Source: Podarcis liolepis
Taxonomy: Eukaryota
Length of the DNA: 64,000 nucleotides
Assembly: GCA_965112155.1 (NCBI GenBank)
Contig: OZ218100.1
Direction: 5' to 3' (one strand)
In this document: positions 2,985-63,075 of the stretch, in pieces
How positions within the stretch are numbered: position 1 is the first letter of the stretch
Layout: every line of letters begins with the position of its first letter
Translations under genes and position numbers: made by a program
Notes under the pieces: model-generated
What the model was told of the DNA's origin: nothing
The model's input: only the letters and a program-made list of their open reading frames with translations
Database searches by the model: none

Positions 2985-2998
2985 GTAGTAGTAGTAGT

Positions 2999-3253
2999 AG
3001 AGCCAGTGTGGTGTAGTGGTTAAGAGCGGCAGACTCGTAATCTGGGGAACCGGGTTTGCGTCTCCGCTCCTCCACCTGCAGCTGCTGGGTGACCTTGGGC
3101 CAGTCACACTTCTTTGAAGTCTCTCAGCCCCACTCACCTCACAGAGTGTTTGTTGTGGGGGAGGAAGGGAAAGGAGAATGTTAGCCGCTTTGAGACTCCT
3201 TAAAGGGAGTGAAAGGCGGGATATCAAATCCAAACTCCTCCTCCTCCTCCTCC
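2999..3253 (+). mobile_element. tRNA-derived SINE, Squam3-like (MIR/Ther1-related)
   Basis: A-box TGGTGTAGTGG, degenerate B-box, core CTGGGTGACCTTGGGCCAGTCAC and (CTC)n tail; nearly identical to the copies at 26879 and 37028. Confidence 0.85.
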
Positions 3254-3398
3254 TACTACTACTACTACTACTATTATTTGTGTACTGCCCTTCATCCAAA
3301 GATCCCAGAGTGGTTCACAACAGAAAAATATAAAAGCTGAGGCTGATGAGGAGACCAGAGACAGTAACAGATTTTGCAGGAGGTACTGGCTAGTTTTT

Positions 3399-3763
3399 GG
3401 AACGCGGGTGGCACTGTGGGTAAAACCTCAGTGGCTAGGACTTCCGATCGTATGGTCAGCGGTTCGAATCCCCACGGCGGGGTGAGCTCCCATCGTTTGG
3501 TCCCAGCTCCTGCCCACCTAGCAGTTCGAAAGCACCCCTAAGTGCAAGTAGATAAATAGGTACCGCTTTATAGCGGGAAGGTAACAGCATTTCCGTGTGC
3601 TGCGCTGGTGCTGGCTCGCCAGAGCAGCTTCGTCACACTGGCCACGTGACCCGGAAGTGTCTTCGGACAGCGCTGGCTCCCGGCATCTTAAGCGAGATGA
3701 GCACACAACCCCAGAGTCGGTCACGACTGGCCTGTATGGGCAGGGGTACCTTTACCTTTACCT
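3399..3763 (+). mobile_element. Sauria/Squam1 SINE, full length (variant X)
   Basis: GG(A/G)ACGCGGGTGGC start, B-box GGTTCGAATCC, (ACCTTT)n tail; 13-bp TSD TACTGGCTAGTTT at 3384-3396 and 3764-3776. Confidence 0.92.
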
Positions 3764-5265: not shown

Positions 5266-5576
5266 GTAAACCACTAAGCCTTGGGCTTGTTGATCAGAAG
5301 GTCGGCGGTTCGAATTCTCGCGACGGGCTGAGCTCCCATGGCTTTGTCCCAGCTCCTGCCCACCTAGGGTACTGCTCCAGCGGGAAGGTAAACGGTGTTT
5401 CCGTGCACTGCTCTGGTTTCGCCAGAAGCGGCTTAGTCATGCTGACCACATGGCCTGGAAAAACTGTCTGCAGACAGACATTGGCTCCCTTGGCCAGTAA
5501 AGCGAGATGAGCTCCACAACCCCAGAGTCGTCTGCAACTGGACTTAACTGTCAGGGGTCCTTTACCTTTACCTTTT
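5266..5576 (+). mobile_element. Sauria/Squam1 SINE, 5'-truncated with internal deletion
   Basis: Aligns to the other copies; lacks the segment between CACCTAG and GGTAC; (ACCTTT)n tail. Confidence 0.85.
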
Positions 5577-5685
5577 ATATTTGACAGAGGAGGTAGAACA
5601 CAGCATGGGTGGCTGCTACCCATCAATAACACTGATGTTGGGATTGTGCAGAAGTGCTGGCAGGAGTGCCAGTTTGCCTCCTCTG

Positions 5686-5871
5686 CTGCTCCAACGGGAA
5701 GGTAAACGGTGTTTCCGTGCACTGCTCTGGTTCTCCAGAAGCAGCTTAGTCATGCTGGCCACATGACCCAGAAGCTGTACGCCTGCTCCCTCAGCCAATA
5801 AAGCGAGATGAGCACCGCAATCCCAGAGTCGTCTGTGACTGGACTTAACGGTCAGGGGTCCCTTTACCTTT
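5686..5871 (+). mobile_element. Sauria/Squam1 SINE 3' half
   Basis: CGGGAAGGTAAACGG...GGTCAGGGGTCCCTTTACCTTT matches the 3' half of 42071-42425. Confidence 0.85.
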
Positions 5872-7352
5872 TAACTCCTCCCCCCATCACAGTGTTTTCC
5901 ATTACATTCCTTGGCCCAGTTATGGGGCTGCCAAATGAGATGGTAACCGGTGTAGTTACTTTCTCTAGCCATGAAGACGACTACATTCTACAATATACCA
6001 CAATTTGCCAACTACTGAATCTGCAATGCTTTACTCATTAAAGCGACAGCATTTACATTAGGATTTGAGCAGTACCACGTACAAGTGACAAACATAATCT
6101 AGGTTCTCACAAGACAACATTTGCCCACACAATCAAATTGATTCACACTCAGTGGTTGGAGGTGCCTCAAGCAGACATCCTGAACTGTGGTGTTCATTAA
6201 CCTCCTGAAATGTCTATAACTGAACAGTACTTTTCAGAAGGCCAGTGCACACATTTCCAGCATGCTAGGACAACTCTGAATTTAAACTACGAAGATAAGT
6301 AATTGTGTTCTGTCCCTCTCCTTCACACAGTTTTCGTGGTTACTGTTTCTTTCCAGCAGCATCTGGGTGTGGGTGTAAATCTGATATTTTTCTGATGATT
6401 TTGAAACCCTTAAGCAATTTTTATTCTTTCCACCTGAGCTCTAGCAGTGGCTTGTCATTTTCAGAGAAGGGACACAAACAAGGAGACTAAGCATGAGCAA
6501 TAGTGGGTGCACACATCCACTGGTGACATGCTTGCAAAAAACCCCCACATCTGGAGCTGCAGACAGAAAACAGTAGTAGTAATTAATATCATCTTGACTC
6601 AAACTGACTTCCTCACAGAGATAAGAGAAGCAACACACAGCCTGTCTCCTTTCTGTTCCTTGCAGACATAGACCATGACTTCCTCTCCGTGCTTAGTCTG
6701 ATTGAGGATGCTGTTCCTTAACCCTATGTATAACAACATGCAGCATGCAGACAGCCTTATGGCCAAGCATCATCATCATCATCATCATCATCTTGTGAAA
6801 GTGCTGCTTTATTTATTCTATTTTCTTACATTTGTACCCTGCCTTTCTTTCCTTATGGAACCCTAGGCAGTGCACGTTGCCAAGCAATCTCAAAACAAGG
6901 AGAAATGCACTTCCCTTAATGAGAAATTAAAGCTGGATATTTGCTGTTTGATGATGAGCTATTTAAGACACATATACCTCTTCTGTTGCTGCCCCTCTTT
7001 CATGTTTCAACACCACGGCATTGGTAGGAGCATTTAAGAGAAACATTTACATCAGAGCTAGAAACTTGCTCTGTTTTCTTTTTACAAGAGAATTATCAGA
7101 TTCTATGTCACTTGTCCATTTTGTGGCTGTGTAAATTCCTAGTCACTCTTGCCCCAATCCAGAGAAAGTTAGTTATTAATAGGCTGTAACCTTCTGCTCG
7201 CTTACCTTGAAAAAAGCCCCATTGAGATCAATTTTGAATTTGTTCTCTTGGTTTCAATAACACCTAAGTGTGCTTTACTTTCACTGGGCTGGAGCCCAGT
7301 AGAGTGACGTAGAAAAGGCAGTGCCTTTTAAAACATGTATATCCCATTCTTA

Positions 7353-7715
7353 GGGATGCGGGTGGCGCTGTGGGTAAAACCTCAGTGCCTAGGACTTGCT
7401 GATCGCATGGTCGGCAGTTCGAATCCCCACGGCGGGGTGAGCTCCCATCGTTCGGTCCCAGCTCCTGCCCACCTAGCAGTTTGAAAGCACCCTTAAGTCA
7501 AAGTAGATAAATAGGTACCACTTTATAGCGGGAAGGTAAACAGTGTTTCCATGTGCGGCGCTGGTGCTAGCTCGCCAGCTGCAGCTTCGTCACGCTGGCC
7601 ACGTGACCCGGAAGTGTCTTTGGACGGCGCCGGCTCACGGCCTCTTGAGCGAGATGAGCACGCAACCCTAGAGTCGGTCTCGACTGGCCCGTGCGGGCAG
7701 GGGTACCTTTACCTT
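7353..7715 (+). mobile_element. Sauria/Squam1 SINE, full length (variant X)
   Basis: 13-bp TSD TATCCCATTCTTA at 7340-7352 and 7716-7728; Pol III boxes; ACCTTT tail. Confidence 0.92.
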
Positions 7716-8299
7716 TATCCCATTCTTAATGCTTCAAACATTGCAGCTTTTCAGATATATTGTCTCAATATATAACTAATTTATCCGGTCCTGAAAATGG
7801 ATGAAGAGTGTTCCATTTATCCCTTCTACCCCAGGAAATAATTAATAGAGTACAAGCTCATTTGTCCAAATAGAATGGCAGAGTCGAAAAGAAAAGAAAA
7901 AAGAAAAAAAACCCTGATAGATGGAAGCAATATTTTCTCAGAATCAAAATGAACGATTTTTGTTGAGACAGAATTCTTTTGGCTGTAAATTCTTAATGTA
8001 GGAAGCCATTAGAGATGAGGTAGAATGCTTAGAATCCAGTCTGAAACCAGGTTCTGATTGGGGTGGAAACAAAACAATTTTGGATTTGACAACCTATGCT
8101 GGAGTTTTGACAAAGTAGAATGCTTACATTCCTGGCTCTAAAATCCCCACTTCTCCAATTTTTGCATTGCTAGAAGCTAAACATACTTCATATAGGACAG
8201 TCATTTGTTCTTAAATATGTATTTAAAAATAGAATCCAATTTTTCTAGTAACTTTTCTAGTAACTTTTTTATTAGTTGCAAGAAGAAACTATTTCATAA

Positions 8300-17600: not shown

Positions 17601-18329
17601 CGTCAGTGGACACATGAAGCTCCATGGTACCAGATTCTCCCCCTTTTCTCTTTAATGTCAGGAAATTCTTATATCCTGAATGAATGGTTGAACTACAGAG
17701 GAGGATTCTTCCTTGAACAAGCAGTGTTGGCTCCTTATATACAGACATCCAGTTCTCTGAAGAACTTTGGATCATGACCATTCTATGCAAATTATTATGA
17801 TGGGACTCAGAAGTACCGGTACATAACTGTGCGAGAGCCTCATGGACATTAGCACAGATTTTTTTCCAGATGTCAGTTTAAGCTTAGTTGACAGGTCTTG
17901 TCTACTGATAGGAGATGAACGGAAGTTTAATATAAATGTGCTTTACATGAAAAAGGGCCAAGGATACCTGAAAGGTTCCATTCTGTATTTGGGACCTAAG
18001 CCTTTTGGAAGAGAACAGCTTTTTAATGTGTACTCTGTGTTTGGGCAGACAATGTAGTTCCTTTTTCCTCTGCTAAACATGTTGTGGTTTTTATGTACAA
18101 CATTTAATTTCTTTGGGCTGGATTCAACTGCCTCTCACTAGTTGGAGTATACACCAGGCTTTCACCCATCTCCTCCTGCATATACCCCACCCCCAAATTT
18201 TGTATGGAGAGTGTTGGGAGAACCCTCTAGAACAGTGGGGGGGGGGAGGAGAGGGATTGTTCCACCTGGCTAGCTGAATAATTGCTGCAGCACTATGTTC
18301 AATTCCACAACTAGGGTTTACTTAGAGTA

Positions 18330-18692
18330 AGGTAAAGGTACCCCTGCCCGTACGGGCCAGTTGTGACCGACTCTAGGGTTGCGCACTCATCTCGCTCAAG
18401 AGGCTGGGAGCCGGCGCCGTCCGAAGACACTTTCGGGTCACGTGGCCAGCGTGACGAAGCTGCAACTGGTGAGCCAGCACCAGTGCCGCACACGGAAACG
18501 CCGTTTACCTTCCCGCTATAAAGCAGTACCTATTTATCTACTTGCACTTAGGGGTGCTTTTGAACTGCTAGGTGGGCAGGAGCTGGGACCGAATGACGGG
18601 AGCTCACCCCGTCGCGGGGATTCGAACCGCCGACCTTACGATCAGCAAGTCCTAGGCACTGAGGGTTTTACCCACAGCGCCACCCGCGTCCC
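18330..18692 (-). mobile_element. Sauria/Squam1 SINE, full length (variant X)
   Basis: 12-bp TSD TTACTTAGAGTA at 18318-18329 and 18693-18704; most CpGs retained. Confidence 0.92.
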
Positions 18693-20337
18693 TTACTTAG
18701 AGTATATCCACATAAATAGGCCAAGGTGAAAGCTGAATCATGTTTACTAATTTATATAGGTCTACTCTAAGTGAAATTTAGTTGCATACTACCCCAATAC
18801 ATAATAAAACTTGCAACCTTATCCTACTTTATACTCAAAATTAAGTCCCGTCGCTATAAATGGAATTTAGGTTGAAATCCTAGACATGTTTACCGGGAAG
18901 ATATCCCAGTGAACTGAGGACAATTGCACTGTTACAATTGCACTGTTACAAATTTGATTGCTAAGACTGCAATCCTAAATTTTCTGAGTTCATTGCCTAA
19001 ATCTAAGCATACTTGAAGAATACCAAGCACGTCAAGAGAAGGGAAATAAAATGTAGAGTAGAAAGTGTATTGCTTGCCGCATTTGTTTTTTTTTTTTAAA
19101 AAATGATTAAGTGGTCCCCTTGAAATGACTATGATGTGCCACCCCTTCCTGAGTAATTGTCCAGAGAAAAAGGTGGCTGCCCACCTTTCACATCACAGTG
19201 TACTGCTGCTTCCAGGAATTTTTTAGTCAAAAGTGTCCAATGAGTGTGGCAGGAATCACACTTTCCAAATGCTACAAACAAGTAAACATGGTTTTAAAAG
19301 ATGGGGAAAATGGCCGGGAACACCTTCAGACCACCTCTCCTTTTTCTTTAAGTCAGCTTGGAACAAACAATGCTTAGAAGGGTTTTGTAGACATGCAATC
19401 TAATCCATATGTCTATGTTCCAAGCATAATTCATTGGATACAGATGAGGGAAGTTCACTCCAAGTTGTGAAGTGAACCAAAAACCTCCCCCACCTCCAGT
19501 GGATGAAGGGCAGAAGCTGAGAAAGACCAGCTTGTTCAGGGCAATCGAGCAAGTTTAGGCAGAGGTGAAATTCAAGCTGATAGCTTCTTGATTTTTAGCT
19601 TAGTCTCTTAGCTGCTTTGCTACACCAACTCTTAGTGTTCCAGGTACATGCAGTTTCTTTGCAATCCTCCTATATAATCAGCATTAACCTTTGAAATAAC
19701 CTATATGTTCCGGTTCTAACCCCGCCAAGAAAACTGTGTGCATGATATCCCTGTACCCCGGGGGAAAAAAATCTGGAAAGAGTATGGTGTACGATTGATT
19801 CCCACATCACAGTTTATATTTATGATACAGAATTGATCCAATCTGATTCTGTTCCATATTATGTAAGATAATGCACAAGCTGTTTCTCATCCCTTTCCAA
19901 TAGCATTTTTAACATACAATTAAGTTCTAAGACAAATTTAATTACCAGTGACAAGAGTCTAGTGAAATACTGTCAGACCTACGAAACAGGTCTGCTGTTA
20001 CACTGCCAAGGCCAATTAGGTAGAGGACCTTTTCTCCCCTTACAATGCCCAGGGGAGGAAATGAATATTTAACTCTGTTTGACAACTTGCAGCAACCACC
20101 AAGAACATTTAAACAGTTGTGGCTCTGATCCACACTTTCTTGGAAGTAAGTTATACTGAAACCCATGGAGTTTATGTACAATATAAATGTTCTTGGGTAG
20201 GGGATAATTTTTTTCAACTGAAGTTCCAGTCAAAACCCGGCAGTTTTAAGCCAGTTTAATTTCAACAGGAGAGTTAACCATGTGCTTAATGCGGTCCAGT
20301 GAAATCCATGGGACTTAAAAATGCTTACCTTTGGCTT

Positions 20338-21852: not shown

Positions 21853-21922
21853 TTAGAAATCTTAGAAATTAGAAATTTATATTTTAAATAAAATAATATG
21901 GTAAGTCTACATCTTTTAAGTA

Positions 21923-22139
21923 CAGTGGTACCTCGGGTTACATACTCTTCAGGTTACAGACTCCGCTAACCCATAAATAGTACCTCGGGTTAAGAACTTT
22001 GCTTCAGGATGAAAACAGAAAACGCACGACGGCGGCGTGGCAGGCCCCATTAGGTAAAGTGGTGCTTCAGGTTAAGAACAGTTTCAGGGTAAGAACAGAC
22101 CTCTGGAATGAATTAAGTACATAACCAGAGGTACCACTG
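21923..22139. mobile_element. Tc1/mariner (Tigger/pogo-like) MITE
   Basis: TIRs CAGTGGTACCTC and GAGGTACCACTG with TA on both sides; second copy at 61112-61338. Confidence 0.88.
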
Positions 22140-25100
22140 TACTCAAAACAATTTGAATACCTTGTATTAGCAATGGGTGAAGTTTAAAGATTTAAGGCTT
22201 GTTCTCACATCACTAGTAGATTTGGTTTGATGCTAAAGTGAGATTATAACGGAGGAATTTTTGTCTCAATGTTTCTTCTCTTACACTGAAATCCCATGCA
22301 TATCTATCCAGAAGGATATGTATTGCACTTACCTCTGAGTACATAGGCATAGGATTGTGCTGTTAGGCACTAAAGAAAAACTATGAGTCAAATTATCAGT
22401 CAAGAAACAAGTAAAGAAAAGTTAAGAATGAGACTGATTAATTAAAGGTCTAATTCTATTCTCTTTTGTGTCATGAGGTTGTCTCCAATTATGTTTGACT
22501 TAGTATAGACTTATTAAAGTTAAATGAAATTAAGTTAGATGTGTATGTTAATTTCAGCTGGTCTACTCTAAGAAGGAATGGAGGAGAAATCATTTTTTAG
22601 CTCATGCTTAAAGATGAAACTGCCAAATCTGCACTTTTTGAAACACACAAGCCAAAATGTAGCCATTCAGAGAAATTCACACTTCTCTGAATTTTGCAGT
22701 CCAGTTCTCCAACCAAGTAATGTGTGCACTAAATGCATGTACTAGGTTAAAGGGTACTGAATAAAAGTGGCTAGTATGCTAAGTATGGTTAGCATTGGAT
22801 GTGACCTGTGCTTTTTAGATTTTAAGTGTCAGGGCAGGGAAAGTCTTATTATTGGTATTTGTAAGTCACTCTGAGATCTGTATTTCAGCTGAATAGTGAG
22901 ATGAACATTGTTTACATAGATAAGTAAATGCTTCTAAGGATGTGTCTGTACCAGTTGGTCAAAGAAGGAGACAGGATTTGACCTGAGTCAAGGATCACAC
23001 CAGAAACATCCATATAAAGGTATCCAATTAAAAAATAAACCAGAGGAGCCACCATCACCCACATATTAATTAGAATGAGTAAGTCTTCCAGCATAAAGGA
23101 AACTTGAATGTTTTTCTCAAAATTAGCCACTGGAACTATACATGAATAACAGTATCAAATGAAAATGAACAGTGTATCCTCAACTCCAATAATCCTATAG
23201 AATGGCCAGTGCCTTTTCTCATTATGTATAGGCCTAATAAAAGAGTGCAGAATCATGCACTGGATGCATTAGACTTGTTCAAGAAGTTGTATTTTAAGAA
23301 ATGTTGCTTTAAGGTCAAAACAGGAAGTGTTACTATACATCTGAGATATTGGCACTAGCAAAATGTTACCTATAATTGGGTCTTGTGAGGATTATACACC
23401 TGATGCTTAAATAACACTTCAGCAATATAAAGTGGAGCAACACATACGAAATATGCGGAAGGGAATATATATTCTCGCTTTGCACTTGTACCTGGGCCAA
23501 CTTGTGTGTTTCAAAAATATGCTCAGAATTGTCTCAGAACAGATAAGTTAGAAGTCTGACTGAAGCCAAGATAAAAGAACCAAATCATAAGATTAATGTC
23601 TTCTCTTTACAATTAACAGTACTGACGCTGTGTGGTACAATAATTCTGAAGATGTCACATGACCAGCTACTAATTAGGACAATGAATCCTGCCACTAGGC
23701 TACTAGAAGAAGGTGCCAGAAACTTTTCAGCATAAAAACCTCTGGGTTTCTGATTCCAGAAGTCAGATAAGTCTCAAACATAGACAAAATTACATTGGCT
23801 GATTTCAGTAGCACACAACGGGAGACTTTTGTGACCTGATGAACCGTACAAAGCCCACCTTTCATATAATAAAGCTCCTATTCCTGCTGTCTCCTGGGGC
23901 TACAAAAACAGGGGTTGAAAAACACCTGGCAGGTGCCCATGTTTGCTTGGTAGGCTGAGTTTGGCTTGGGTCACAAATGACCTGGCTATATAAATAAGGG
24001 GCTATTCAGCTATTTGTAGATCTGAAGTCTTGCAGATCTGCCTTAGTAAGCTGTTTCTGAATGGCTTATAGCCACAGAAAGTGTTGGGAAGTATCTGCCT
24101 CCAGAGAAACTGCCTCTCTTTTTTTTCTTGATGTCCCTCTTTGTTTCCTCAGCAGTGAAATAAACAGCTTATTCCATGGTTTAGACCCATCTGATCTTTG
24201 ACATTGTGTCATACTGTACATGGCAAATGAATTTTTCAAGTTCTTGGGACAATAAATCCAATAATTCATTCACAGCTCTGACACTTGCTCTGTCTTCACA
24301 GCTCTGACACTTGCTCTGTCACCCAAACTTAGGGACTTGGCTATGCCAAATTCTTTTGCATGATTTATGGAATTATTTTGCTGGGACTGGAAGGTCATAG
24401 GTCCCTTGAATTAACTGATTGGATGACACTGGAACTTTATAGCTGTCTTTGTCATCCTTCGGTCTCTTTGCCTTATGGTCATTTATCCTTTTATTCCCTT
24501 CAGTCTCTGAGCTTTTTTTGCAGAGCAGTTGTCACATCTTAATTTTTATACAGGAGTGAGTACAATGAAGTATTGAAAAACGGCACAAGTGAAATTCTTG
24601 CCTATGAAACATTCCCAAATATGCAGGAATTTACACTATATGCAATTATAATATAAGACTAATATGTTGTTAGGACTACTTATGTTTTCATTTGTTTTGT
24701 AAGTGCAGCTTTTGATTATGTGCATAATGCTGTAGATAAAAGTAAAAACATCATGATCTACTCAGTTCTAAATAACGATGCACGTGTGTAAAAATGAAGG
24801 TGACAAAGGCTGCATACTTAGGAAGAGCTCCCTCTGTTTCATGAACTGGGCTGTGTCCATTAACATAAAGGCTTTATTTTGTGGACAGCCATTTTGATAC
24901 AGTGCATAAAGTTCTTTTCTTGGACATACAAAAATACTAGTTCAAATCCTTATCCTGCCTCGAGGCTTCAGGGAAGTGTTGTGGTGAGTATAAAGTCTTC
25001 TAAGCCCCATAGGGGAAGAGTGAATACAAATGTAACACCTAGTTATGAGAAGAAATACATTATTTAAATCAAGGATAGATGATCAGCAGGATCAGGATGG

Positions 25101-26878: not shown

Positions 26879-27122
26879 GAGAGCCAGTGTGGTGTAGTGG
26901 TTAAGAGCGGTAGTCACGTAATCTGGGAAACCGGGTTCGTGTCTCCGCTCCTCCACATGCAGCTGCTGGGTGACCTTGGGCCAGTCACACTTCTGTGAAG
27001 TCTCTCAGCCCCACTCACCTCACAGAGTGTTTGTTGTGGGGGAGGAAGGGAAAGGAGAATGTTAGCCGCTTTGAGACTCCTGAAGGGGAGTGAAAGGCGG
27101 GATATCAAATCCAAACTCTTCT
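26879..27122 (+). mobile_element. Squam3-like SINE
   Basis: Near-identical to 2999-3253 and 37028-37291. Confidence 0.85.
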
Positions 27123-29711
27123 AGACTTGAACAGAAAATTGAAAAAGTATGGTGGATATCTATTGTGCTGGTTTTCAGTTCTTTCCTTCTAATTATATAT
27201 AAAAGTGCTATTATTTAAAATATATGACCTCATCAAAGCCAACAGGATGTGTGACATAAATGGGAATGCACCTATCAGTCTGATAGGTGTTTAGTAGCTC
27301 TCTCCTTGACTTCACTGGTACAGTTAAGTAATTTTGGACTCTGGAGTTTGAACTTAATAGTCTTGTGTGGGTGTCATTTTCAGATGTTGACATGTTTTAC
27401 TTCAGTTACCTCAAAAAAGTGATTCTGCTGTCCGGGGGCCAGAACACAAAATTGGGGGCCATGAGCAAAATTGGGCAGCCTAAAGTTGCATTTTATGCAA
27501 ATTGCTTCTTAATTATGCAAATTTTGTTGGAGTTGGGGAAATGGTTAAGCAAATTTCCCATCCCAAACAGAACCTCCCAAAGTTGCTTAATAAGCAACAC
27601 AACTACTGTAGGTTTAGGGGTTTGTTTGTTTTTTCAGGGAAGTGTGAGGGGGCTGAGAAGTTGATTGCAGTGGGAGTAATTAACACTTTCTTTCAGCCTG
27701 TTTGTGCAATTAAGACTTATGAGTTGTCCCCTGCTCTTTCCACCTCACTAGCAATTCATTTCTCCCTCTGTTTCCTCTTCCATAGTGCTGCTGGAATTGA
27801 CTTCACAATGCATGAAAGAAGATTAAAGTTGGAAAGATCATTCAAGACTCCTTTCTTTATTTGTAGCTCCCTCCCTGCCCTGGTTACACTGAAATCCTAG
27901 ATTTCTCCACTATTCTCTCTCATCAGCTAATTTCTTCTACAAAGAAGACAAAAACTGGTTTCAAAAAGAATCAGAACGTCTTTTGGGTAAGCAATGAGTG
28001 TGTCAGTATACGACACACAGTGCTACTTCTCTAAATGTTAGTCATTGGCTAAGAACAATAAAGAGTCGGGGAAGTCTTTTTTCTCACAAAATAACTGGCA
28101 TAATTCAGGCAATTATGGTACCCTTAGAATAGTTTCCATAAAATTGTCTGTGTGCCAGCAGATGGGCTCAGAAATTAACTCTGTATTCCTGCAGTGATAG
28201 TTTAGAGTTTCGGGCCCAAGCCTTATCTTCATAAATAGTTGCTCTAGTTCTAAACTGCAGAAGGTGCTCTCCCACCCTCCCTCCTAAAATGTGGTTTGCA
28301 CAACATTGTGGATAAACTGCAGTCACCTTTGATTCATTATGACATGATTTGGAAACATTTGCCATTACATACTTTAACTTGACTTGGGCCCTGTGTGAGC
28401 CAGAAACTTGACTTTCAAAGATGAGTGTTGGGGCTCTGGGGGGCTGAACATAATCCTGCGTAGGCAACAGGAATTAGCCTTTGAGGGAAGCCTGAATGGG
28501 GCTCACTCAAACATTAACTAATATCCAATATGGTATGCTAAAGACTTTCCCTTATTTTTATTTCATGAAAGACAGAAAGCTCCAGCACTGCATTCTCATT
28601 GTGCTTTATTTCTTGGCCCAGCTATAATTTAAAAACAATATGGGGATAGTTTTCTGTTTTCCAAATTTTAAATACCCTTCTCTCTTATTTATTAGAGGAA
28701 ATGTGGTCCTATAATGGATGCAGCAGCAGCAGCTCTACTTAACTGCAGTTGGTGCAGATGTAGTGTAGCATCACACAGGATGGGTATTATGACTTACACA
28801 TTTCTGACAGGTCCTGAAGCCTGTTGCCATGGTGCCAGCTTGGATTCTAGGGCAGAACTAAACAGCCGACTGTAACTCTTTTCATTTCCAGCTGTCACTG
28901 TGCCACAGCCTGTTTTGTCATAGCATCAAGGATTTTTTTTAAACCAAACTCCATAAACATGGACTGCATCAACTTCACAAACACACATGTTTTCCTGCAG
29001 TTCTTCTATAATTTCAGCACTTCCAAAATGAGACGCACCATAAAATCAATGAATACTTTCTTCCATCCCTCTCTAGTCAACACAGTATTTGCCCCTAAAG
29101 CACTCAATGCAACTTGATAGGACAAAACTATGTATCAGTCTGTACATGTTCAGCTATTATAGGCCTTTCCCACTGTGTATTAAAACATGCCTAAGTCAGC
29201 TGCTACTGGGACGTAACAATAAGTGGGAGGAGGGGACACAGTGTACATTGTATAACTGTGGAGAAATCCATACCATCCATGTTCCAGAGCTTCTGTGGGC
29301 AATGACAGTGCAGTGACACAGGCAAACATAGGGCTACTTCTGAACCCTGTGACTGCACAGGTTGTAGCTATTCCATGAGAAGTGGGGGGGGGGCAGACAT
29401 ACAAGCAAACCAGACAACCTATCCTCTCCTTGTTAGTTTCACTGGTCACCACAGAGTGGATATCATTTCCCTCCCATCCTACTACCTCCATTAAACAGCA
29501 CTGTAACCTTTGGGAATTTATAATCTTTCCAACCTGCTCCCTATATTGGTTAGAATGGTGTCACACTCAGGAATGGTGAGAATAACATCTCTCTATCCAA
29601 ATTTTCTAAAGGGAATGATGCTTTTGCCTACAGTTTTAGTAAGGAACAAGCTTGTGGGACAATGGTTTTAGGGAAGAAAACTACTTCCCCCATGAGAGAA
29701 AATAAAAATAA

Positions 29712-31503
29712 CGCTGGTCCACAACAAATTTGTTGCCTGCATTTTTTCAGTTGATTTAGGATGAATCTGATGCGCTGAATCCAAAAATCACATTGGTTTT
29801 GCTCAATCAGGTCAAGTTTTTGAGCTATGGCCACATGTTGTTTTTTTATGTTTTTGTTCACATGTACGCTTGTGTGGAGCATTTTAGAAGAAGTTGGTGT
29901 GGGTAAAATGCCATGTCAAATAATTGTTTTGATTGGAAATGATTATTTTAATGACAAGTTAATGGGGCAGCCGCCCCACGAAGTATCCTGATCTTCAATC
30001 AGCACGTTGTCCTGTAGCTCATTATGATGAAATTCCAGTGCCTATCTTTGGAGAACTTCCTGACATTAGTGACGAAGATGCCTTCAGTGTTGAAGGACAT
30101 GAAGAAGAAGTGGTTCTTGAAGATGATGCTCCACATCCATTTTCCCAAAAGGAATTGAATGATCTAGTTCATGACCTCAGCTTGTCAAAGGACTCTGCCG
30201 AACTGTTGGCATTCAGATTGAAGGGAAAAAAACCTCCTCTCTGACAGTGCTCGCATCAGCTTCCTCCGCAACAGGCATCAAGAGTACCTCCGTTTTTTCT
30301 CGGAAGAGAAGGACTTGGTGTACTGTGCAGATATTGCGCAGCTTCTGCTCAAGCTTGGAGTGCCACAGTACGAATCCAAAGATTGGAGACTGTTCATTGA
30401 CAGCAGCAAGCGATCACTGAAATGTGTTCTGCTACACAACGGCAACCAGTTTGCCTCTATACCCCTGGCTCACTCGAGTACACTGAAGGAGAACTATGAA
30501 GCGGTGAAGTATGTGCTGGAGAAAATTGGTTATGATCAGCATAAGTGGTTTATTTGTGTTGACCTGAAGATCGTGAACTTTTTGTTGGGACAACAGTCTG
30601 GCTTCACCAAGTACCCATGTTTTCTGTGCATGTGGGATAGTAGGGACCGTGCTCAGCATTACACGAAGAAGGACTGGCCTGTGCGGGAGGAACTGGTGCC
30701 TTGCAAAAAAAGGAACGTCATCAACAACCCTCTGGTGGACAGAGACAGAATATTCTTCCCACCGCTGCACATCAAGCTTGGCTTAATCAAGCAGTTCACC
30801 AAGGCTCTGGACAAGGATGGTGACTGCTTCACTTACTTGTGCCAGGCTTTTCCAGGATTGACCATGGAGAAGTTGAAAGCTGGCATCTTTGACGGTCCTC
30901 AGATCTGTCAGCTCATCAGAGATCCAGAGTTCGGAAACTCAATGAACGAAGTGGAACTGGAAGCGTGGAAGGCATTTGTTCTGGTAGTGAAGAACTTTCT
31001 TGGCAACAATAAGGCCAGAAACTATGCAAAACTTGTCAACAACATGCTGACTGCTTTCAGAAACTTGGCCTGCAACATGAGCGTCAAGATGCGCTACCTA
31101 TTTTCACATATGGACTGGTTTCCTGAGAACCTGGGTTCAATGAGTGACGAGCAGGGGGAGAGATTCCATCAGGACATGAAAGAGATGGAGACTAGGTATC
31201 AGGGTCGCTGGGACGCAGTCATGATGGCTGACTACTGTTGGACTCTGAAGAGAGACCTCCCTGCCACTGATCATTCCAGGAGTTCCAAGAAATGAAGGTT
31301 CAAGCCCTGAAGTTTGAAAAATGGTGAAGCAACATGCAATTTACGTGTACTTACCTTTATCAATGCCCACCATTCAGTTTACAGAAAACCTGACCTGATG
31401 GAGAGAAACGGATACCATTTCCTGATTCAGCAGTGCAAAAATACCCTAAATCAGTTGTAGAAATCTAGACAACATTCAAAAAGTAAAAAATTGTTGCCCA
31501 GTG
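29712..31503 (+). mobile_element. Chapaev3-type (CMC superfamily) DNA transposon, internally deleted, both ends present
   Basis: TAA flanks both sides (29709-29711 and 31504-31506). Left end is CGCTGGTCCACAAC and right end is GTTGCCCAGTG (reverse complement CACTGGGCAAC). About 110 bp of imperfect terminal inverted similarity with shared blocks TGTTG(C/T)CT, TGATTTAGG, GCTGAATC and ATCAGGTCA. Contains a transposase frame. CAC...GTG termini with a 3-bp TWA TSD are the established Chapaev3 signature. Confidence 0.9.
29981..31295 (+). pseudogene. Chapaev3-like DDE transposase, N-terminally truncated, one frameshift
   Basis: From 29981 reads KYPDLQSARCPVAH...FSQKELNDLVHDLSLSKDSAELLAFRLK. A +1 frameshift in the G/A run near 30222-30232 is followed by an open frame (LLSDSARISF...DLVYC...) through the 326-aa ORF 30315-31295. 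Motifs: WRLFIDSS, ICVDLK, YPCFLC, PPLHIKLG, GIFDGPQI, SDEQGERFHQD, MMADYCW. Confidence 0.9.
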
Positions 31504-34500
31504 TAATCCAGCTATATCTATTCAAGATTGCTTCTCTAACCTAGCCAGTACTTGTCCATTTATGTCATAAAGCAGCTGGGTTTCTTTGAAACCTTCTCCT
31601 GGTCCATTTCTGCTGTGGTGCCCAACTGTGATCTCTGACACTTTCCAATGTTCCACCTTACTTGAAATCTGCCAGATCTTGCTCTCTTGCAACTTTTCAG
31701 TTCTCAATCATCAGTGAAACTTCTCACGGATGGCAATGAAGACCTTGTTCTTCAGTTTGGCTGATATTTTCCCTCCCCCTCTGACCTTTTCACCAGTTAG
31801 GAGTGTGGAGTCCTTCTATTTCTCCTAAATTACTAGGTTCCTAGGCTGAATTCATTTATTTATTTAGCCCATTTATTAGGGTTCACATATTTCAAACAGT
31901 GAAAATCAGCTTTTAAAAGGCAAAGTTGTTGAGCAATTCCCCCCCCCCCCATTTTTGACCTATTTTTATGGGAAATTGAAAAAAAGTCACTGCTGACATG
32001 GGCTGCAATATGTCTGATTTTCCTAGACATTTGACCAATTTCTGCCTGGACAATGCTGCCCACTGCAGTATCCTGGATTTGTTCAGGAAATTCCAGCTAT
32101 ATGGCAAGCCTACATTTATAAACCACTTAAGATCCACAAATCTCAAAGCAGTTAGAATAAATAAAAATCCAAATACAAAATTCAACAGTATTGTTTCAAA
32201 TAAATTAATTTACATGAAGAAAAATCCAAATACATAAATGCACACTATCTATTTCCATAATAATATCTATTTAAGAAGCAATATAAAAGAGTCAAATAAA
32301 TCTCTACAACCAATTAAGAACAGCTGGAGTTAAACTGCCAAATGAGCATAAGTTCAACAAAATACAATAAAAATGAGTGATTATTTTTTTAAGTATGTGA
32401 AGTCCACTTAAAAGAGACAAGCAAAGGGATTATTCTACATATTTGGAGGGCAAGGAAATTTCACTTCAAAATTAAAGATAACAGTATGGCAGAATAAGGT
32501 GGTACAAGGGCATACCTTTAGCACACTTTCTCCATGTTTTGGCCTGAAATCTTGAGTACTTCAATATTATCATATATACAAAGAGTGATCCCAATGTTTT
32601 GAGTGCCTGTTCTTATGTAATCCAAGCAAGATAAGTGCATTTGCATCACAATATCATAGAATGGGTTGAAGGAAAGCTGACTCACTTGCTTGTAGGGATG
32701 TGGGAGAAACTCAGTGAGGTTCACAGAAGTGCTATCATTTGCACTTCCGGAAACAAGAGACAAACTGAAATGCAGTTATCCTTTGAAATTCACACAACTC
32801 CAGATGCTCTTCAGCCAAAAATGTGTACAAATATACATATTTTGTTTGAGATGCACAGCGAATGAAAGTTGGGCTGTTATGTTATCAAAAGAAAGACTTC
32901 CCAGTCTCTTGGTACATATTTATTAGATTAGAGCTGAATCTGCACTAAATATTTATGCTTCAGATGGTGTTCCATTCATCAATAAGAATTGAAAATAATT
33001 TCAGTTCATCATATATTATAGCACAGCTTTTTATATAATTGGAGGTTTCTGCAAATTTGATGGAGTGCCATATGACTGGGAATGAGGGAGGGAGCGATAT
33101 TATAAGTACATTCACAAAAATCTGTAATAACAAACTCAGTCTCCAAGAGTGTATTCTTATGTAGCCAAAACAGCACCACAAAGGAGAAGTATAAACATGG
33201 TCTGGAGAACAGCAAGGTTTACATAATACAGAAAAGGAGTAAGGGAACCTAAGGGGGCAACCCCCTTAAAACAGCAACAACCCAACACTGAGCACAAATT
33301 TAAAACAGACTATCAAAAACCATTTAGAACAGGCTCTGTCACAAGTTTCACTTGTATGACTTAATAAAAAGAATGCCACTGAGCAGGTGCAAAGTGCATA
33401 TCTTTCACTTGGAGTAGCTACAGCTAGTTTGCAGATGTCTGAGGTTGAGGATATGATGACTGACTACTGAGTCTTTTTTTGGTCACTGCCACTCCAACTC
33501 TTCTGTCTACCTGCTGATGTGTTAAAATTAGCTGTAGTCAGAGCAGTCCCAAAGGCAGAGGCTGAGAAAGAGGTGGGGGAAAGTTCAGGGACAAGCAAGT
33601 CACAGCAAGTTAGCTCATTTCAGAAAGTGGTGCTCAACTGGCCACTCACACTATTATGGAAAAGAGAGCTTCTGTCTTTGAAAGATATGTCGGTGTGATG
33701 TTGTTGTTGTTTAGCTTCCTAACTATTTGGAAAGACCACCAGAGAGTGGAAATCTCAGGGTCCCTGAATCCCAGTTCCTTAATTTTCACATGGAGGCTAC
33801 AACCAACATTGACAAAATACTTTCTGGCATTGAGCAATGAATTGTGCTGACAGGTTATATAAATCTCCTTTTTGTATTCACTAAAGTCTAAGGCTAATGG
33901 CTTTTTTGAGCTTTGTTACTCTCCTTTGGGGGGGTGGGGTGTTTAAGCCAAAAAGGAGAGAGATGGTTATAAATACTTGGCTCCAGCATCTGCATTACAT
34001 CTGTTCAACAGGGAAAGAGTGAAGAATGTTTTAAAGCAACAAGCATGCAGTTAAAGGTAACATGCCAGTATTGCCTCATAGCTTATGTTGTGACAGGACA
34101 TAACAGCAATTCAATCCAAATTGTTCGACAAAATAAAGGGGTAAAAATGGATACCTGTGGTCAGCTTAGGCCAGATACATGCCTAAATCTAGTACTCATA
34201 CTAGAATATGACATCTATCAATGTGATCCTTTGTCAGATCATAGGAAGTAAGTGGAACCATTGCAGGGGGTGGGGTGGGGACACAACACTCAAGTTTATA
34301 AAATATAGTTGGCTGTTTTAGTTCTAGAACTAAAACAGTAAGATGGAAAGCAGTCCTCTCATGAAGCTCAAGAAATCCAATCAAATTGACCTTCAAACTG
34401 TAATCCTAAAACATTGTTTTGAAGCCAAAAGCAAACTGAAAATATATGGGATTTGCCAAGAATCCTATATGGTTTGACTTAGGACAAGAATGTAAACAAA

Positions 34501-37027: not shown

Positions 37028-37291
37028 GAGAGCCAGTGTGGTGTAGTGGTTAAGAGCGGTAGTCATGTAATCTGGGAAACCGGGTTCGTGTCTCCGCTCC
37101 TCCACATGCAGCTGCTGGGTGACCTTGGGCCAGTCACACTTCTGTGAAGTCTCTCAGCCCCACTCACCTCACAGAGTGTTTGTTGTGGGGGAGGAAGGGA
37201 AAGGAGAATGTTAGCCGCTTTGAGACTTCTTAAAGGGAGTGAAAGGCAGGATATCAAATCCAAACTCTTCTTCTTCTTCTTCTTCTTCTAC
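37028..37291 (+). mobile_element. Squam3-like SINE with (TTC)n tail
   Basis: Same body as the other two copies; (TTC)n at about 37266-37289. Confidence 0.85.
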
Positions 37292-37337: not shown

Positions 37338-37773
37338 TATAATGGTTGGGAGTTACTCGTGCGTAATCCTGCTCCGTTTGAGCATTAGATTGCCTGGTTA
37401 AACCCTCCGGACTGCACAGCCCATCTCAGCGTGGCTGCCCTTAGTCACTCGTAGAATCTGTCTGTGGGCGTTTCTTAAAGCGTTGCCAACATAAGAGTTG
37501 TTTGACGCCCAATCGTCTCCGCCTCTCACTGCGCGGGAGTCTCCTGCGCAGGGTGGGCGTGGGCAGCGGGGTGCTTGGGCTCTCCTCGTTAATTTCCAAC
37601 GAAGAGTCCTGGAGCCCCTGCACCTCCCTGTCCCCTGCTCTCCTGGATCCCTGGTGTTACACTCATTCTCTTCCCCTTCTTCCCAGCTGAGTCTCCCTCT
37701 AGCGCTGGGACCTTCCCTTGCAGAATCAGTGACCCTCTCCTTCTCCCGTGCCTCTGATGGCAGTTCCCTGACA
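37338..37773. mobile_element. Solo LTR (probably Gypsy-type), CpG-rich
   Basis: 5-bp TSD CTAAC at 37333-37337 and 37774-37778; ends in TGACA and begins TATAA (TG probably mutated to TA). Confidence 0.7.
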
Positions 37774-42070: not shown

Positions 42071-42425
42071 GGGACGCGGGTGGCGCTGTGGGTTAAACCA
42101 CAGAGCCTAGGACTTGTCGATCAGAAGGTCGGCGGTTCGAATCCCTGTGACGGGGTGAGCTCCCATTGCTCGGTCCCTGCTCCTGCCAACCTAGCAGTTT
42201 GAAAGCATGTCAAAGTGCAAGTAGATAAATCGGTACCACTCCAGCGGGAAGGTAAACGGCGTTTCCGTGCACTGCTCTGGTTCGCCAAAAGCGGCTTAGT
42301 CATGCTGGCCACATGACACGGAAGCTGTATGCCGGCTCCCTCGGCCAATAAAGCAAGATGAGCGCCGCAACCCCAGAGTCGGCCACGACTGGACCTAATG
42401 GTCAGGGGTCCCTTTACCTTTTTTT
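42071..42425 (+). mobile_element. Sauria/Squam1 SINE, full length (variant Y)
   Basis: GGGACGCGGGTGGCGCTGTGGGTTAAACCACAGAGCC...GGTCCCTTTACCTTT. Confidence 0.92.
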
Positions 42426-60810: not shown

Positions 60811-61104
60811 GCAGAAATAAAAGTTATTAAATATACAACTACGAATGAAAGTCAAGAAACCTGTGGCTGTCAACAAAGGATTAAGACCGGAACGGTTGTT
60901 ATTGGATTAATTAAGATTATGAAAGCAGGAAGAAATAATAACTTTGTAACCTGAAACCCAGTACACCGGAAGTCATATCAGATTGATTAATTTGGTTTTT
61001 GAATAATTGACTCTCTCTTTTTTAATTGGATTGTAATTTGGTAATGTGACAATGTGGCTTTTATTGGAATTGTATTAAAATTAATAGAAATTATTATAAT
61101 AAAA
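60811..61104 (+). mobile_element. 5'-truncated LINE 3' UTR (L1-like) with A-rich tail
   Basis: AT-rich body ending AATAAAAAA. TSD AAGAATATATTCTT (60797-60810) matches AAGAATA+CATTCTT once the MITE at 61112-61338 is removed. Confidence 0.6.
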
Positions 61105-61111
61105 AAGAATA

Positions 61112-61338
61112 TAGTGGTACCTCGGGTTAAGGACTTAATTCGTTCTGGAGGTCCGTTCTTAACCTGAAACTGTTCTTAATCTGAGGTACCACTTTAGCTA
61201 ATGGGGCCTCCTGCTGTCATTGCGCTGCCGGAGCACAATTTTTGTTCTCATCCTGAAGCAAAGTTCTTAACCCGAGGTACTACTTTCCGGGTTAGCGGAG
61301 TCTGTAACCTGAAGTGTCTGTAACCTGAGGTACCACTG
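61112..61338. mobile_element. Tc1/mariner MITE (inverted relative to 21923-22139)
   Basis: TAGTGGTACCTC and GAGGTACCACTG with TA flanks. Confidence 0.88.
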
Positions 61339-62720
61339 TACATTCTTACAGCAGCTTTCTATGTCTGTCTTTTTAGGATTTTTTCAATGTAGCTTACTTC
61401 CAGGAAAAGTAAAACTTCTGTCTAAAAAGTTATTATGTTTACATTAAGATTTGAGCCTGACTTTATTCGATGGGTTGGATTCAGATATAAACTTTCATGA
61501 ACAGAAAGGCTCCATCTACGCACAGAAGGTTTTTGATCCCATGGAGGAGTTTTAAGTAGTGCAAAAGGGAGGAGGCTGTTTTTGCTGACTTTCTCCTCCT
61601 CCAGCAGCTTCGCCTCGCCGGTTTCAATCGGTCTCCCAGTCCTTCGGAAGAGATTTTCAGAGGATGCAAGCAAGCGTCTGTAGGGAAAATTGGCAAAAGT
61701 ACACATACCATTTCAAAGTTAGCTGAAAAGACTTTAACACATTTCTGTATCTATATTTATAACATTTTGTGAAAATTGCAACCACCAATGATATTTTTTT
61801 TAAGAACAGGAAGTACAAAATCTTGGGAAAACAGCAATCTGCATAGACCAAGCTCAAATGATTAAAACATTCCATCAAGTAACAATAAGCTCCATCTATG
61901 AGAGGGAAACTCTCCACAAGGATCTTTGAGAAACTGGAGGCTGGATATCTCTTAACCTTGGATTAATACATAGAGATAAATATCACTCTTCCACAATTTC
62001 CTCTCTTGCCAATTTCCATTTTTGCTAGTTTTCCAACAAAGGCAATTTTCCAGACCCTGTCATACCATTGCCTCAATGAAAAACCCACTTTGGTTTCTTT
62101 CAAACAGCTAAAGATACCAAGAAAAATGCTTATTAAACCCTCCTCCTCGCCAAAAAAAAAGAGCAAATTAAAATAGTTTTTACAGTGCTTTATTAATACA
62201 CTCCTCTAAAATAAGGCAGCACACACTCATATAAATACATTCAGCCTTCTATAATGTAAATCCCAACACTACAGATCTAGTGTGAGGTGAGCACAGCTGG
62301 TGTGGGCTGCTTCCATGTGACATCCCACACCCCTTGGCCTGTAGCGACAGTGTAGTATGTAGGATTATCCTATAAAGCATGGGGGCATTTTCAATAGGCA
62401 TGTTCCTAAAACTCCTTATATTGTATGGAAAACCCTTCCTAAGGCCTATGGAAAATATCGCCCTTGTGATACAGAGCTCACTGTTACACTGCTATTTCAA
62501 CTATAGACTGTGAATCATGCTGCTGTTCTAAACTCCTTTTTTCACCAATGTTGGCTGGGCTTCTTCTTTGAAATAACCAAACATTCTCCTACAGCTACTT
62601 CAATTTCACTGACCCATGTTCCTTGTGTCCCATATAGCGCAACACACTAAACTAGTTCCAGGCCCTCGATGCCAAGCATTCCAGGAAACCTACATTTGGA
62701 CGTTTCCTTAGAAAGCAGGA

Positions 62721-63075
62721 GGGACGCGGGTGGTGCTGTGGGTTAAACCACAGAGCCTAGGACTTGCTGATCAGAAGGTCGGTGGTTCGAATCCCCGCGA
62801 CGGGGTGAGCTCCCGTTGCTCGGTTCCTGCTCCTACCAACCTAGCAGTTCAAAAGCACATCAAAGTGCAAGTAGATAAATAGGTACCACTCCAGTGGGAA
62901 GGTAAACGGCGTTTCTGTGTGTTGCTCTGGTTCGTCAGAAGCGGCTTAGTCATGCTGGCCACATGACCCAAAAGCTGTACGCCGGCTCCCTCAGCCAATA
63001 AAGCGAGATGAGTGCCACAACCCCAGAGTCGGCCATGACTGGACCTAATGGTCAGGGGTCCCTTTACCTTTACCG
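62721..63075 (+). mobile_element. Sauria/Squam1 SINE, full length (variant Y)
   Basis: 13-bp TSD TTAGAAAGCAGGA at 62708-62720 and 63076-63088. Confidence 0.92.

Follow-up and report, generated by a model that had tools for sequence, protein, structure and literature searches.

The window, which is the whole 64,000-nucleotide stretch of Podarcis liolepis DNA analysed here, contained a single 1792-bp element at positions 29712-31503, in the context A-TAA-element-TAA-T (Table 1). The coordinates, both ends and the TAA duplications were exactly those given by the earlier sequence-only reading, and a self-BLASTN search found no second copy of the element within the 64-kb window. The left end reads CGCTGGTCCACAAC and the right end ...TTGTTGCCCAGTG, and the two matched at 10 of 13 positions. 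The right end finished in CCCAGTG (GTG present), and the left end began with CGCTGG instead of CACTGG. As compared with the left end of the related locus L012, the left terminal inverted repeat showed two differences (CAC>CGC and CAA>CCA). Among related elements from metagenome contigs, all five aligned left ends began with CAC at the same position, and four of five aligned right ends finished in CCCAGTG. These ends support the boundaries called here, and the CGC on the left most probably arose in the window copy. CAC...GTG termini therefore appear to be a property of the family, and the departure from them in the window copy is most likely decay. The subterminal inverted repeat likely represents a putative transposase-binding region.

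Table 1. Features of the element and its insertion site (positions in the window)
Feature	Position	Strand	Basis
Left target-site duplication TAA, preceded by A	29709..29711	.	Sequence and single TAA at empty site (X1)
Left terminal inverted repeat CGCTGGTCCACAA	29712..29724	+	Comparison with relatives' ends
Left subterminal inverted repeat, 69% identical to 31385-31474 over 90 nt	29731..29820	+	Self-BLASTN; kept in relatives
22-nt junction in place of the lost 5' segment, which held the start codon and residues 1-113	29959..29980	+	Loose ends, alignment
Piece 1 of the transposase remnant (KYPDLQ...); the match to full-length P0128 starts at its residue 114	29981..30222	+	
+1 frameshift; the X15 contig has one G fewer in this run	30223..30225	+	
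Transposase remnant piece 2, catalytic core: FIDSS, CVDLK, CFLC (C(2)C), PPLH, SDEQGERFH	30226..31292	+	
Premature TGA (CGA>TGA, CpG loss), 5 codons before family stop 31308-31310	31293..31295	+	
Second deletion junction; X15 contig has 140 extra letters here	31384..31385	+	
Right terminal inverted repeat, reverse complement CACTGGGCAACAA	31491..31503	-	Comparison with relatives' ends
Right target-site duplication TAA, then T	31504..31506	.	Sequence and empty site (X1)

The target-site duplication was directly confirmed by a single contig of 1060 nt from run X1 (organism A), which spans the two flanks, joins 29708 to 31504, skips 1795 bases (1792 + 3, the three letters fitting on either side) and has a single TAA at the empty site. 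The sequence-only reading had proposed to look for such an empty site in related lizards, and it was found here in a relative whose flank differs from that of the host at 26 of 606 letters (4.3%), consistent with insertion after a recent host split. Among the 198 other reading frames of at least 68 aa in the window, Pfam gave four matches, all below the cut-off, and no host exon, which places the insertion between genes or far inside an intron. No Rfam matches and no tRNA genes were found in the window.

Other repeats were observed around the element. Copies of a ~360-nt SINE in at least two subtypes, which we take to be the Squam1/Sauria SINE, were located at 3398-3760, 7353-7717, 18329-18693, 42071-42422, 62721-63072 and 5267-5872. 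Two MITE copies of ~220-260 bp (21922-22142 and 61082-61341), flanked by TA and ending in CAGTGGTACCTC...GAGGTACCACTG, are presumably Tc1/mariner-like. The length of the ~360-nt SINE fits that in PMC10058329 (partial text). Three SINE copies of ~244 nt, 95-98% alike (2998-3241, 26879-27122 and 37028-37271), appeared young and of the Squam3B type; they match by eye the Squam3B rows of the supplementary alignment of PMC7983390, in which the diagnostic 12-mer occurs six times, the lacertid rows being assigned from row order. This match makes a lacertid lizard the likely host and agrees with the earlier recognition of a lizard-like genome. A unique stretch richer in GC and CpG, with no Pfam or Rfam matches, adjoins a SINE at 37350-37620 and is possibly a regulatory island. 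A 280-base assembly gap (N run) lies at ~1185-1465.

The coding remnant of the element spans 29981-31310 (1330 nt) and carries one frameshift. The sequence-only reading had rightly described ~1.3 kb of coding sequence with a single frameshift, but it overlooked the loss of the N-terminal 113 aa, the late stop, a His-to-Arg change and the 140-nt deletion. The 113 aa missing from the window copy, as compared with full-length relatives, form a Cys/His-rich region, whose Cys and His residues are invariant in the full-length relatives that are 92-93% identical to the window copy. This region corresponds to the Chapa zinc finger, a domain shared with RAG1 (PMC4411706, partial text). Loose ends of contigs or reads were found at 29958 and 29981 in X15 (an invertebrate-metagenome RNA run) and X23 (an RNA run of organism B), and at 29958 also in X1 and X2 (organism B). 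Within the 5' junction, a fold-back (GGGGC-AGCC-GCCCC) was seen at 29964-29977; its first half matches sequence that lies immediately upstream in the full-length form, suggesting templated repair at the deletion. At the second junction, all relatives break alignment.

The frameshift was not present in the X15 contig or in the related proteins P0001 and P0131, both of which begin just after the 5' deletion junction, and the gapped depth of X1 at this position was only 332 of 93,552, so that part of the lizard subfamily may share it. The first His of H(4)H is replaced by Arg at 31092-31094 (RYLFSH here vs HYLFSH in P0001), and the His letter (31093 G>A) was seen in reads of all four runs compared; judged by these reads, the Arg is a private decay of this copy. 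We conclude that the window copy is a decayed non-autonomous deletion derivative and not a near-intact transposase. The possibility of an autonomous copy was dropped in view of the missing zinc finger, the frameshift, the late stop and the H(4)H change, and the copy is predicted to be immobile and without function.

Chapaev3 elements are defined by insertion as A-TWA...TWA-T, CAC/GTG ends, a DDE transposase, and the C(2)C, LH and H(4)H motifs (PMC4079192, partial text). In the window, the 3-bp TWA duplication (TAA) was present between A and T, the C(2)C and LH motifs were found in the ORF as CFLC and PPLH, and the D, D and E motifs were unchanged. D254 and D308 of P0128 were invariant in 95 sequences and E504/E507 nearly so, either of which may be the catalytic E. 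By these sequence features, the family is of the Chapaev3 type, and the window copy departs from it in the left CAC, the first His of H(4)H and the Chapa domain, three departures that are explained by decay or deletion of this copy.

A search of representative proteins gave 16,364 matches, all without names. The best protein match of the window copy was P0001 (424 aa, Logan), with 95.9% identity (398/415), and the full-length relatives at 92-93% were 556-560 aa long (P0122, P0123, P0127, P0128 and P0162). Proteins of Helobdella robusta, the source of three Repbase Chapaev3 families (PMC4079192), were 77-82% identical to the family. The Chapaev3-like nature of the matches, together with the TWA duplication and the motifs, upholds the Chapaev3 assignment that had been made from the sequence. 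Related metagenome elements were found at 16 loci, and the best long matches for 13 of them were 73-88% over 0.2-1.4 kb. Among these, near-identical relatives at ~87% (L002, L003, L004, L006 and L008) had the same flank in several metagenome contigs, with non-TWA flanks (TAG left, TAG right) and extra sequence in the 5' region.

When P0128 was modelled with AlphaFold from a 95-sequence alignment (pLDDT 90.9), the predicted structure matched RAG1 (best E 2.8e-7) and HzTransib (best E 3.3e-7), and 47 matches had E<=0.001, in agreement with the placement of Chapaev3 near Transib/RAG1 (PMC4411706, partial text). The full-length transposase of ~556 aa is thus predicted to have a RAG1/Transib fold. 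The likeness to RAG1/Transib comprises this predicted fold of the full-length relative and the Chapa domain shared with RAG1, whereas sequence identity is 8-14%, the duplication here is a 3-bp TWA, and there is no RAG2. Pfam assigned no family to the two ORFs of the element or to P0128. A PDB sequence search gave three matches, none significant; those bearing on the N-terminal domain were weak (7po9 at E 0.1, a RAG1 fragment at E 3.1). The ESM Atlas matches to RAG1 clusters, all <0.9, serve as leads only.

In X1, the summed contig depth was 198,000-417,000 on the element as compared with 79 on the flanks, a ratio that is not a copy number, and seven contigs extended past the right end, their flanks agreeing at only 0.46. 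As read from depth only, the lizard family appears to be high-copy and dispersed, on the order of 10^3. Contigs fitting only partly numbered 129 of 3789 in X1 and 117 of 6490 in X2, and four to five loose ends were listed at each deletion junction in X1. These low numbers suggest that the doubly deleted form dominates and that full-length copies are rare. Organism B (X2, without flank coverage) showed the same pattern as X1, and the form with both deletions seems to be a non-autonomous subfamily present in many copies. In the RNA run X23 of organism B (133 reads from ~12% of the run), five to six reads at each junction (29981 and 31385) carried the full-length form. Full-length junctions were thus frequent in this RNA although the DNA-type contigs of organism B are mostly of the deleted form; from these few reads, full-length copies are possibly transcribed preferentially in organism B. 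Word shares were 0.45-0.52 for organisms B-G; the values for fish- and mollusc-metagenome RNA runs X16-X20 were 0.12-0.15, and these runs were kept outside the evidence for transfer.

Close relatives of the element were found in distant animals. At the protein level, XP_064120350 (uncharacterised LOC135224977) of the prawn Macrobrachium nipponense was 92.2% identical to the window protein (236/256) and 95.0% identical to P0001 (230/242; 93.0% by BLASTP with gaps). The prawn protein, encoded on a 106.6-Mb contig, falls into the 90% cluster of P0001, where it is the one named protein among 40 of the 46 members. It differs from the window copy in keeping the N-terminal zinc finger and in being frameshifted at the C-terminus, and is without transposase annotation. 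At the DNA level, X15, a mixed sample under a metagenome label that could hold non-host nucleic acid, contained the form without deletions, covering it from 29714 onwards and past the right end, without host flank. It differed from the window at 72 of 1674 letters (4.3%; 95.7% identity) in five main pieces, both ends included; within the coding part the figure was 3.8%. Decay of the window copy itself accounts for about half of these differences, and the total divergence equals that between the host and organism A. The 95.7% DNA identity and the 92-95% protein identity appear to lie far above host-gene expectation; dS of EF-1a between insects alone is 0.57-3.5 (PMC4079192 Table S8). Identity to P0001 was 91.7% for barramundi (Lates), 89.8% for a sea spider, 88.7% for soldierfish (Myripristis), 83.0% for a firefly, 78.1% for a shrimp, 77.5% for a leech, 72.4% for a woodlouse and 61.5% for the worm lizard Rhineura.

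ML trees (LG+G4) were computed from two selections, of 19 and of 23 rows. The window and P0001 grouped at 99/92 and 100/90, and these two formed a 100/100 clade with the prawn protein and a set of full-length proteins. The branching inside this clade was without support, and 10 of the 23 rows were ungrouped in the larger tree. The transposase tree conflicts with the host phylogeny: a clade of the window with Rhineura was rejected (AU p=1e-28; the squamate group was fixed before the first tree), as was one with two fish elements (AU p=7e-5; the fish group was chosen after earlier trees had been seen). Five pattern matches on viral contigs yielded no confirmed case and the phage collection gave no match, so that no viral carrier was found in these sets. 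Taken together, these comparisons bear out the candidacy for horizontal transfer that had been raised from the sequence, and the horizontal acquisition of the family by lizards is well supported by them, with donor, vector and direction left aside.

Two further observations were made among the matches. A sister family joins woodlouse and goby at 100/100 (P0489-P0493 and P0032/P0474), with intact 556-aa copies on several chromosome-size contigs of the woodlouse, and likely reflects a further arthropod-fish transfer. Chapaev3 transposase sequence was also found inside NLRP12-like models of the fishes Lates and Myripristis and a pyruvate dehydrogenase phosphatase subunit model of a crab (P0517, P0534 and P0048), which are probably annotation fusions.

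The transfer may be real and yet have had another immediate source, namely another vertebrate or an unsampled vector. A single wave would then have reached both the prawn and the lizard, and the copy in the invertebrate run may be passenger nucleic acid. The neighbouring fish families from Lates and Myripristis, the presence of about half of the words in organisms B-G and the unsupported order inside the 100/100 clade are consistent with this view. However, the two fish elements fall outside that clade and their union with the window was rejected. In addition, X15 differs from the window at 68 places, vs ~35 for the element copies of X1; being both more distant and undeleted, the X15 sequence is not simply the lizard subfamily. 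We regard this explanation as possible, but as clearly the less probable one.

The element could also be a known transferred family. Merrow, Garfield and Conan are reported to be horizontally transferred, Conan between tenrec and anole (PMC4079192, partial text). The present family shares with these three the A-TWA...TWA-T insertion, CAC/GTG-type ends, the C(2)C, LH and H(4)H motifs, high cross-phylum identity, non-autonomous derivatives and a lizard among the hosts (Anolis for Conan). It differs in its termini, in having a lacertid and not an anole as host, and in having a prawn as its closest named relative. Identity with Merrow or Garfield was rejected, as their termini (CACTGTGTAAC and CACGACTC) match at only 8-12 of 14 positions; three of the four Garfield motifs were missing from all 468 proteins compared. 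Across Conan, Merrow, Garfield and Chapaev3-2_AC, the published ends match at only 7-12 of 14, and, compared by these ends, the family appears to be a different one. The element being Conan itself (Chapaev3-1_ET / Chapaev3-3N1_AC) is very unlikely: the size is similar (Conan_ET, 1865 bp, 461 aa, single exon) and the TWA duplication and a lizard host are shared, but the ends match at 9-11 of 14 (~30 nt compared per Conan end), as compared with 87.6-98.3% likeness among Conan members. The anole MITE copies of Conan are mostly 80-90% identical to their consensus, and derivatives in the published families shrink to MITEs of 300-450 bp (PMC4079192, partial text), whereas the copy studied here lies ~2% from the family majority and belongs to a derivative in which the catalytic core is complete. 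Chapaev3-1_AC and Chapaev3-2_AC of Anolis are likewise 1.8-1.9 kb long, with a TWA duplication and a squamate host, but they have other terminal inverted repeats (CACTGRWAAACA and CACTAGGAAACAC) and are old, extinct and present in 4-15 copies (PMC3014272, partial text).

The age of the copy was estimated from its distance to the family majority, 40 of the 135 rows of differing sites being listed. The window differed at 42 places from the majority letters of X2 (2.3%) and at ~35 from X1 (61 minus 26 in the flank; 2.0%), and nine CpG losses were among the 24 element positions listed. With 2.56e-9, a rate applied to Lacertidae (PMC12001565 Table 1, partial text) and the one borrowed rate on which the ages rest, the host would have split from organism A ~8 My ago, and the copy would be roughly ~5-9 My old. 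Organism A carries the derivative and yet lacks this insertion, which makes it likely that the family invaded, and the deletion arose, before the two hosts split; further transposition probably took place at about the time of the split or later.

The element contained 35 CpG (o/e 0.40), as compared with an o/e of 0.24 in the rest of the window and 0.18 when 15 repeat stretches were masked, and its CpG excess is real but moderate. The CpG o/e was 0.64-0.92 in five full-length Squam1-like SINE copies of the window, and the value in four related metagenome elements was only 0.47-0.54, suggesting that CpG content alone says little on age. CpG content was accordingly dropped as the main dating argument, since SINEs beside the element reach 0.9; the CpG retention noticed in the sequence-only reading stands as an observation, but is a weak clock here. 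Its description of the copy as young also needs tempering: the site is empty in a close relative, but this is a decayed derivative ~2% from the family majority that has lost CpGs. The copy is dead and only moderately young, several million years old. A very recent insertion, still mobile or near-autonomous as the CpG excess had hinted, is highly improbable; the excess over masked DNA, the empty site and the intact D, D and E motifs fit it, but the ~35-42 differences from the family majority, the frameshift, the late stop, the H(4)H change, the missing zinc finger, the mutated left CAC and the nearby SINE copies with twice the CpG o/e argue against it.

Vertical inheritance from an old squamate or bilaterian ancestor with conservation by selection is effectively refuted, since, although Chapaev3 occurs in other squamates (Anolis, PMC3014272, partial text; Rhineura P0117), the DNA identity to the invertebrate-run element extends to non-coding ends, the Rhineura protein is only 62.5% identical to the window protein and its clade with the window was rejected, and the copy decays neutrally and is absent at the orthologous site. 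Of the two contrary outcomes named beforehand by the sequence-only reading, an orthologous insertion across distant squamates and best matches to a non-Chapaev family, neither emerged: the orthologous site was empty in a relative only 4.3% divergent, and the matches were Chapaev3-like proteins.

We therefore favour, with considerable confidence, the explanation that the locus carries a decayed Chapaev3-type copy with two deletions, occupying a TAA site where a close relative has no element, and that the family entered lizards by horizontal transfer, probably within ~10 My. In this scenario, a full-length transposase family spread among distant animals would have arrived in a lacertid ancestor. 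A 1.8-kb derivative, as the alignments show, lost the Chapa zinc finger and 140 nt at the 3' side while keeping both ends and the subterminal repeats. Judging from read depth, full-length copies probably mobilised this derivative in trans, and it multiplied to a high copy number. The present copy entered its A-TAA-T site at about the time of the split from organism A or later, and has since decayed neutrally, as seen from its CpG losses, frameshift, late stop and left-TIR change.

A broader reading that joins these observations is speculative, and we consider it rather unlikely as a whole. It holds that an undescribed Chapaev3 family may have swept within ~10 My over crustaceans, other invertebrates and several vertebrate lineages, leaving a thousand-copy derivative in lacertids. 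The master of the derivative may have retained an uninterrupted reading frame of 424 aa that spans the complete RAG1-like catalytic core and lacks the Chapa zinc finger, and, by analogy, the 424-aa protein may have acted as a dominant-negative brake on the invasion or as a helper of it. The KP derivative of P elements is a parallel for such a truncated-transposase brake. Full-length copies may still be transcribed in at least one host.

A recent horizontal arrival in lacertids (0.6-11 My) is also described for the Helitron Heli1Xen1, which is found in amphibians and fish as well; it differs in being a rolling-circle element with vertebrate hosts only (PMC12001565, partial text). Most transfers among vertebrates involve ray-finned fishes and Tc1/mariner (PMC7070016, partial text), and the main text of that paper contains no occurrence of Chapaev, CMC, Podarcis or lizard. 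At the level of titles and the beginnings of abstracts, the literature listed yielded no Chapaev3 family in lacertids or prawns, and the family may already carry a name elsewhere, for instance in Repbase or Dfam. The entry of Chapaev3 into lizards is already published for Conan (PMC4079192), and the present case is thus an increment, which adds a likely transfer of a little-studied RAG1-related transposon from an invertebrate to a terrestrial lizard. The family is young enough to supply presence/absence markers among closely related lacertids, and public data contain full-length transposases that are intact and share 96-97% identity with the lizard subfamily, so that the biochemistry of Chapaev3 transposition is testable.
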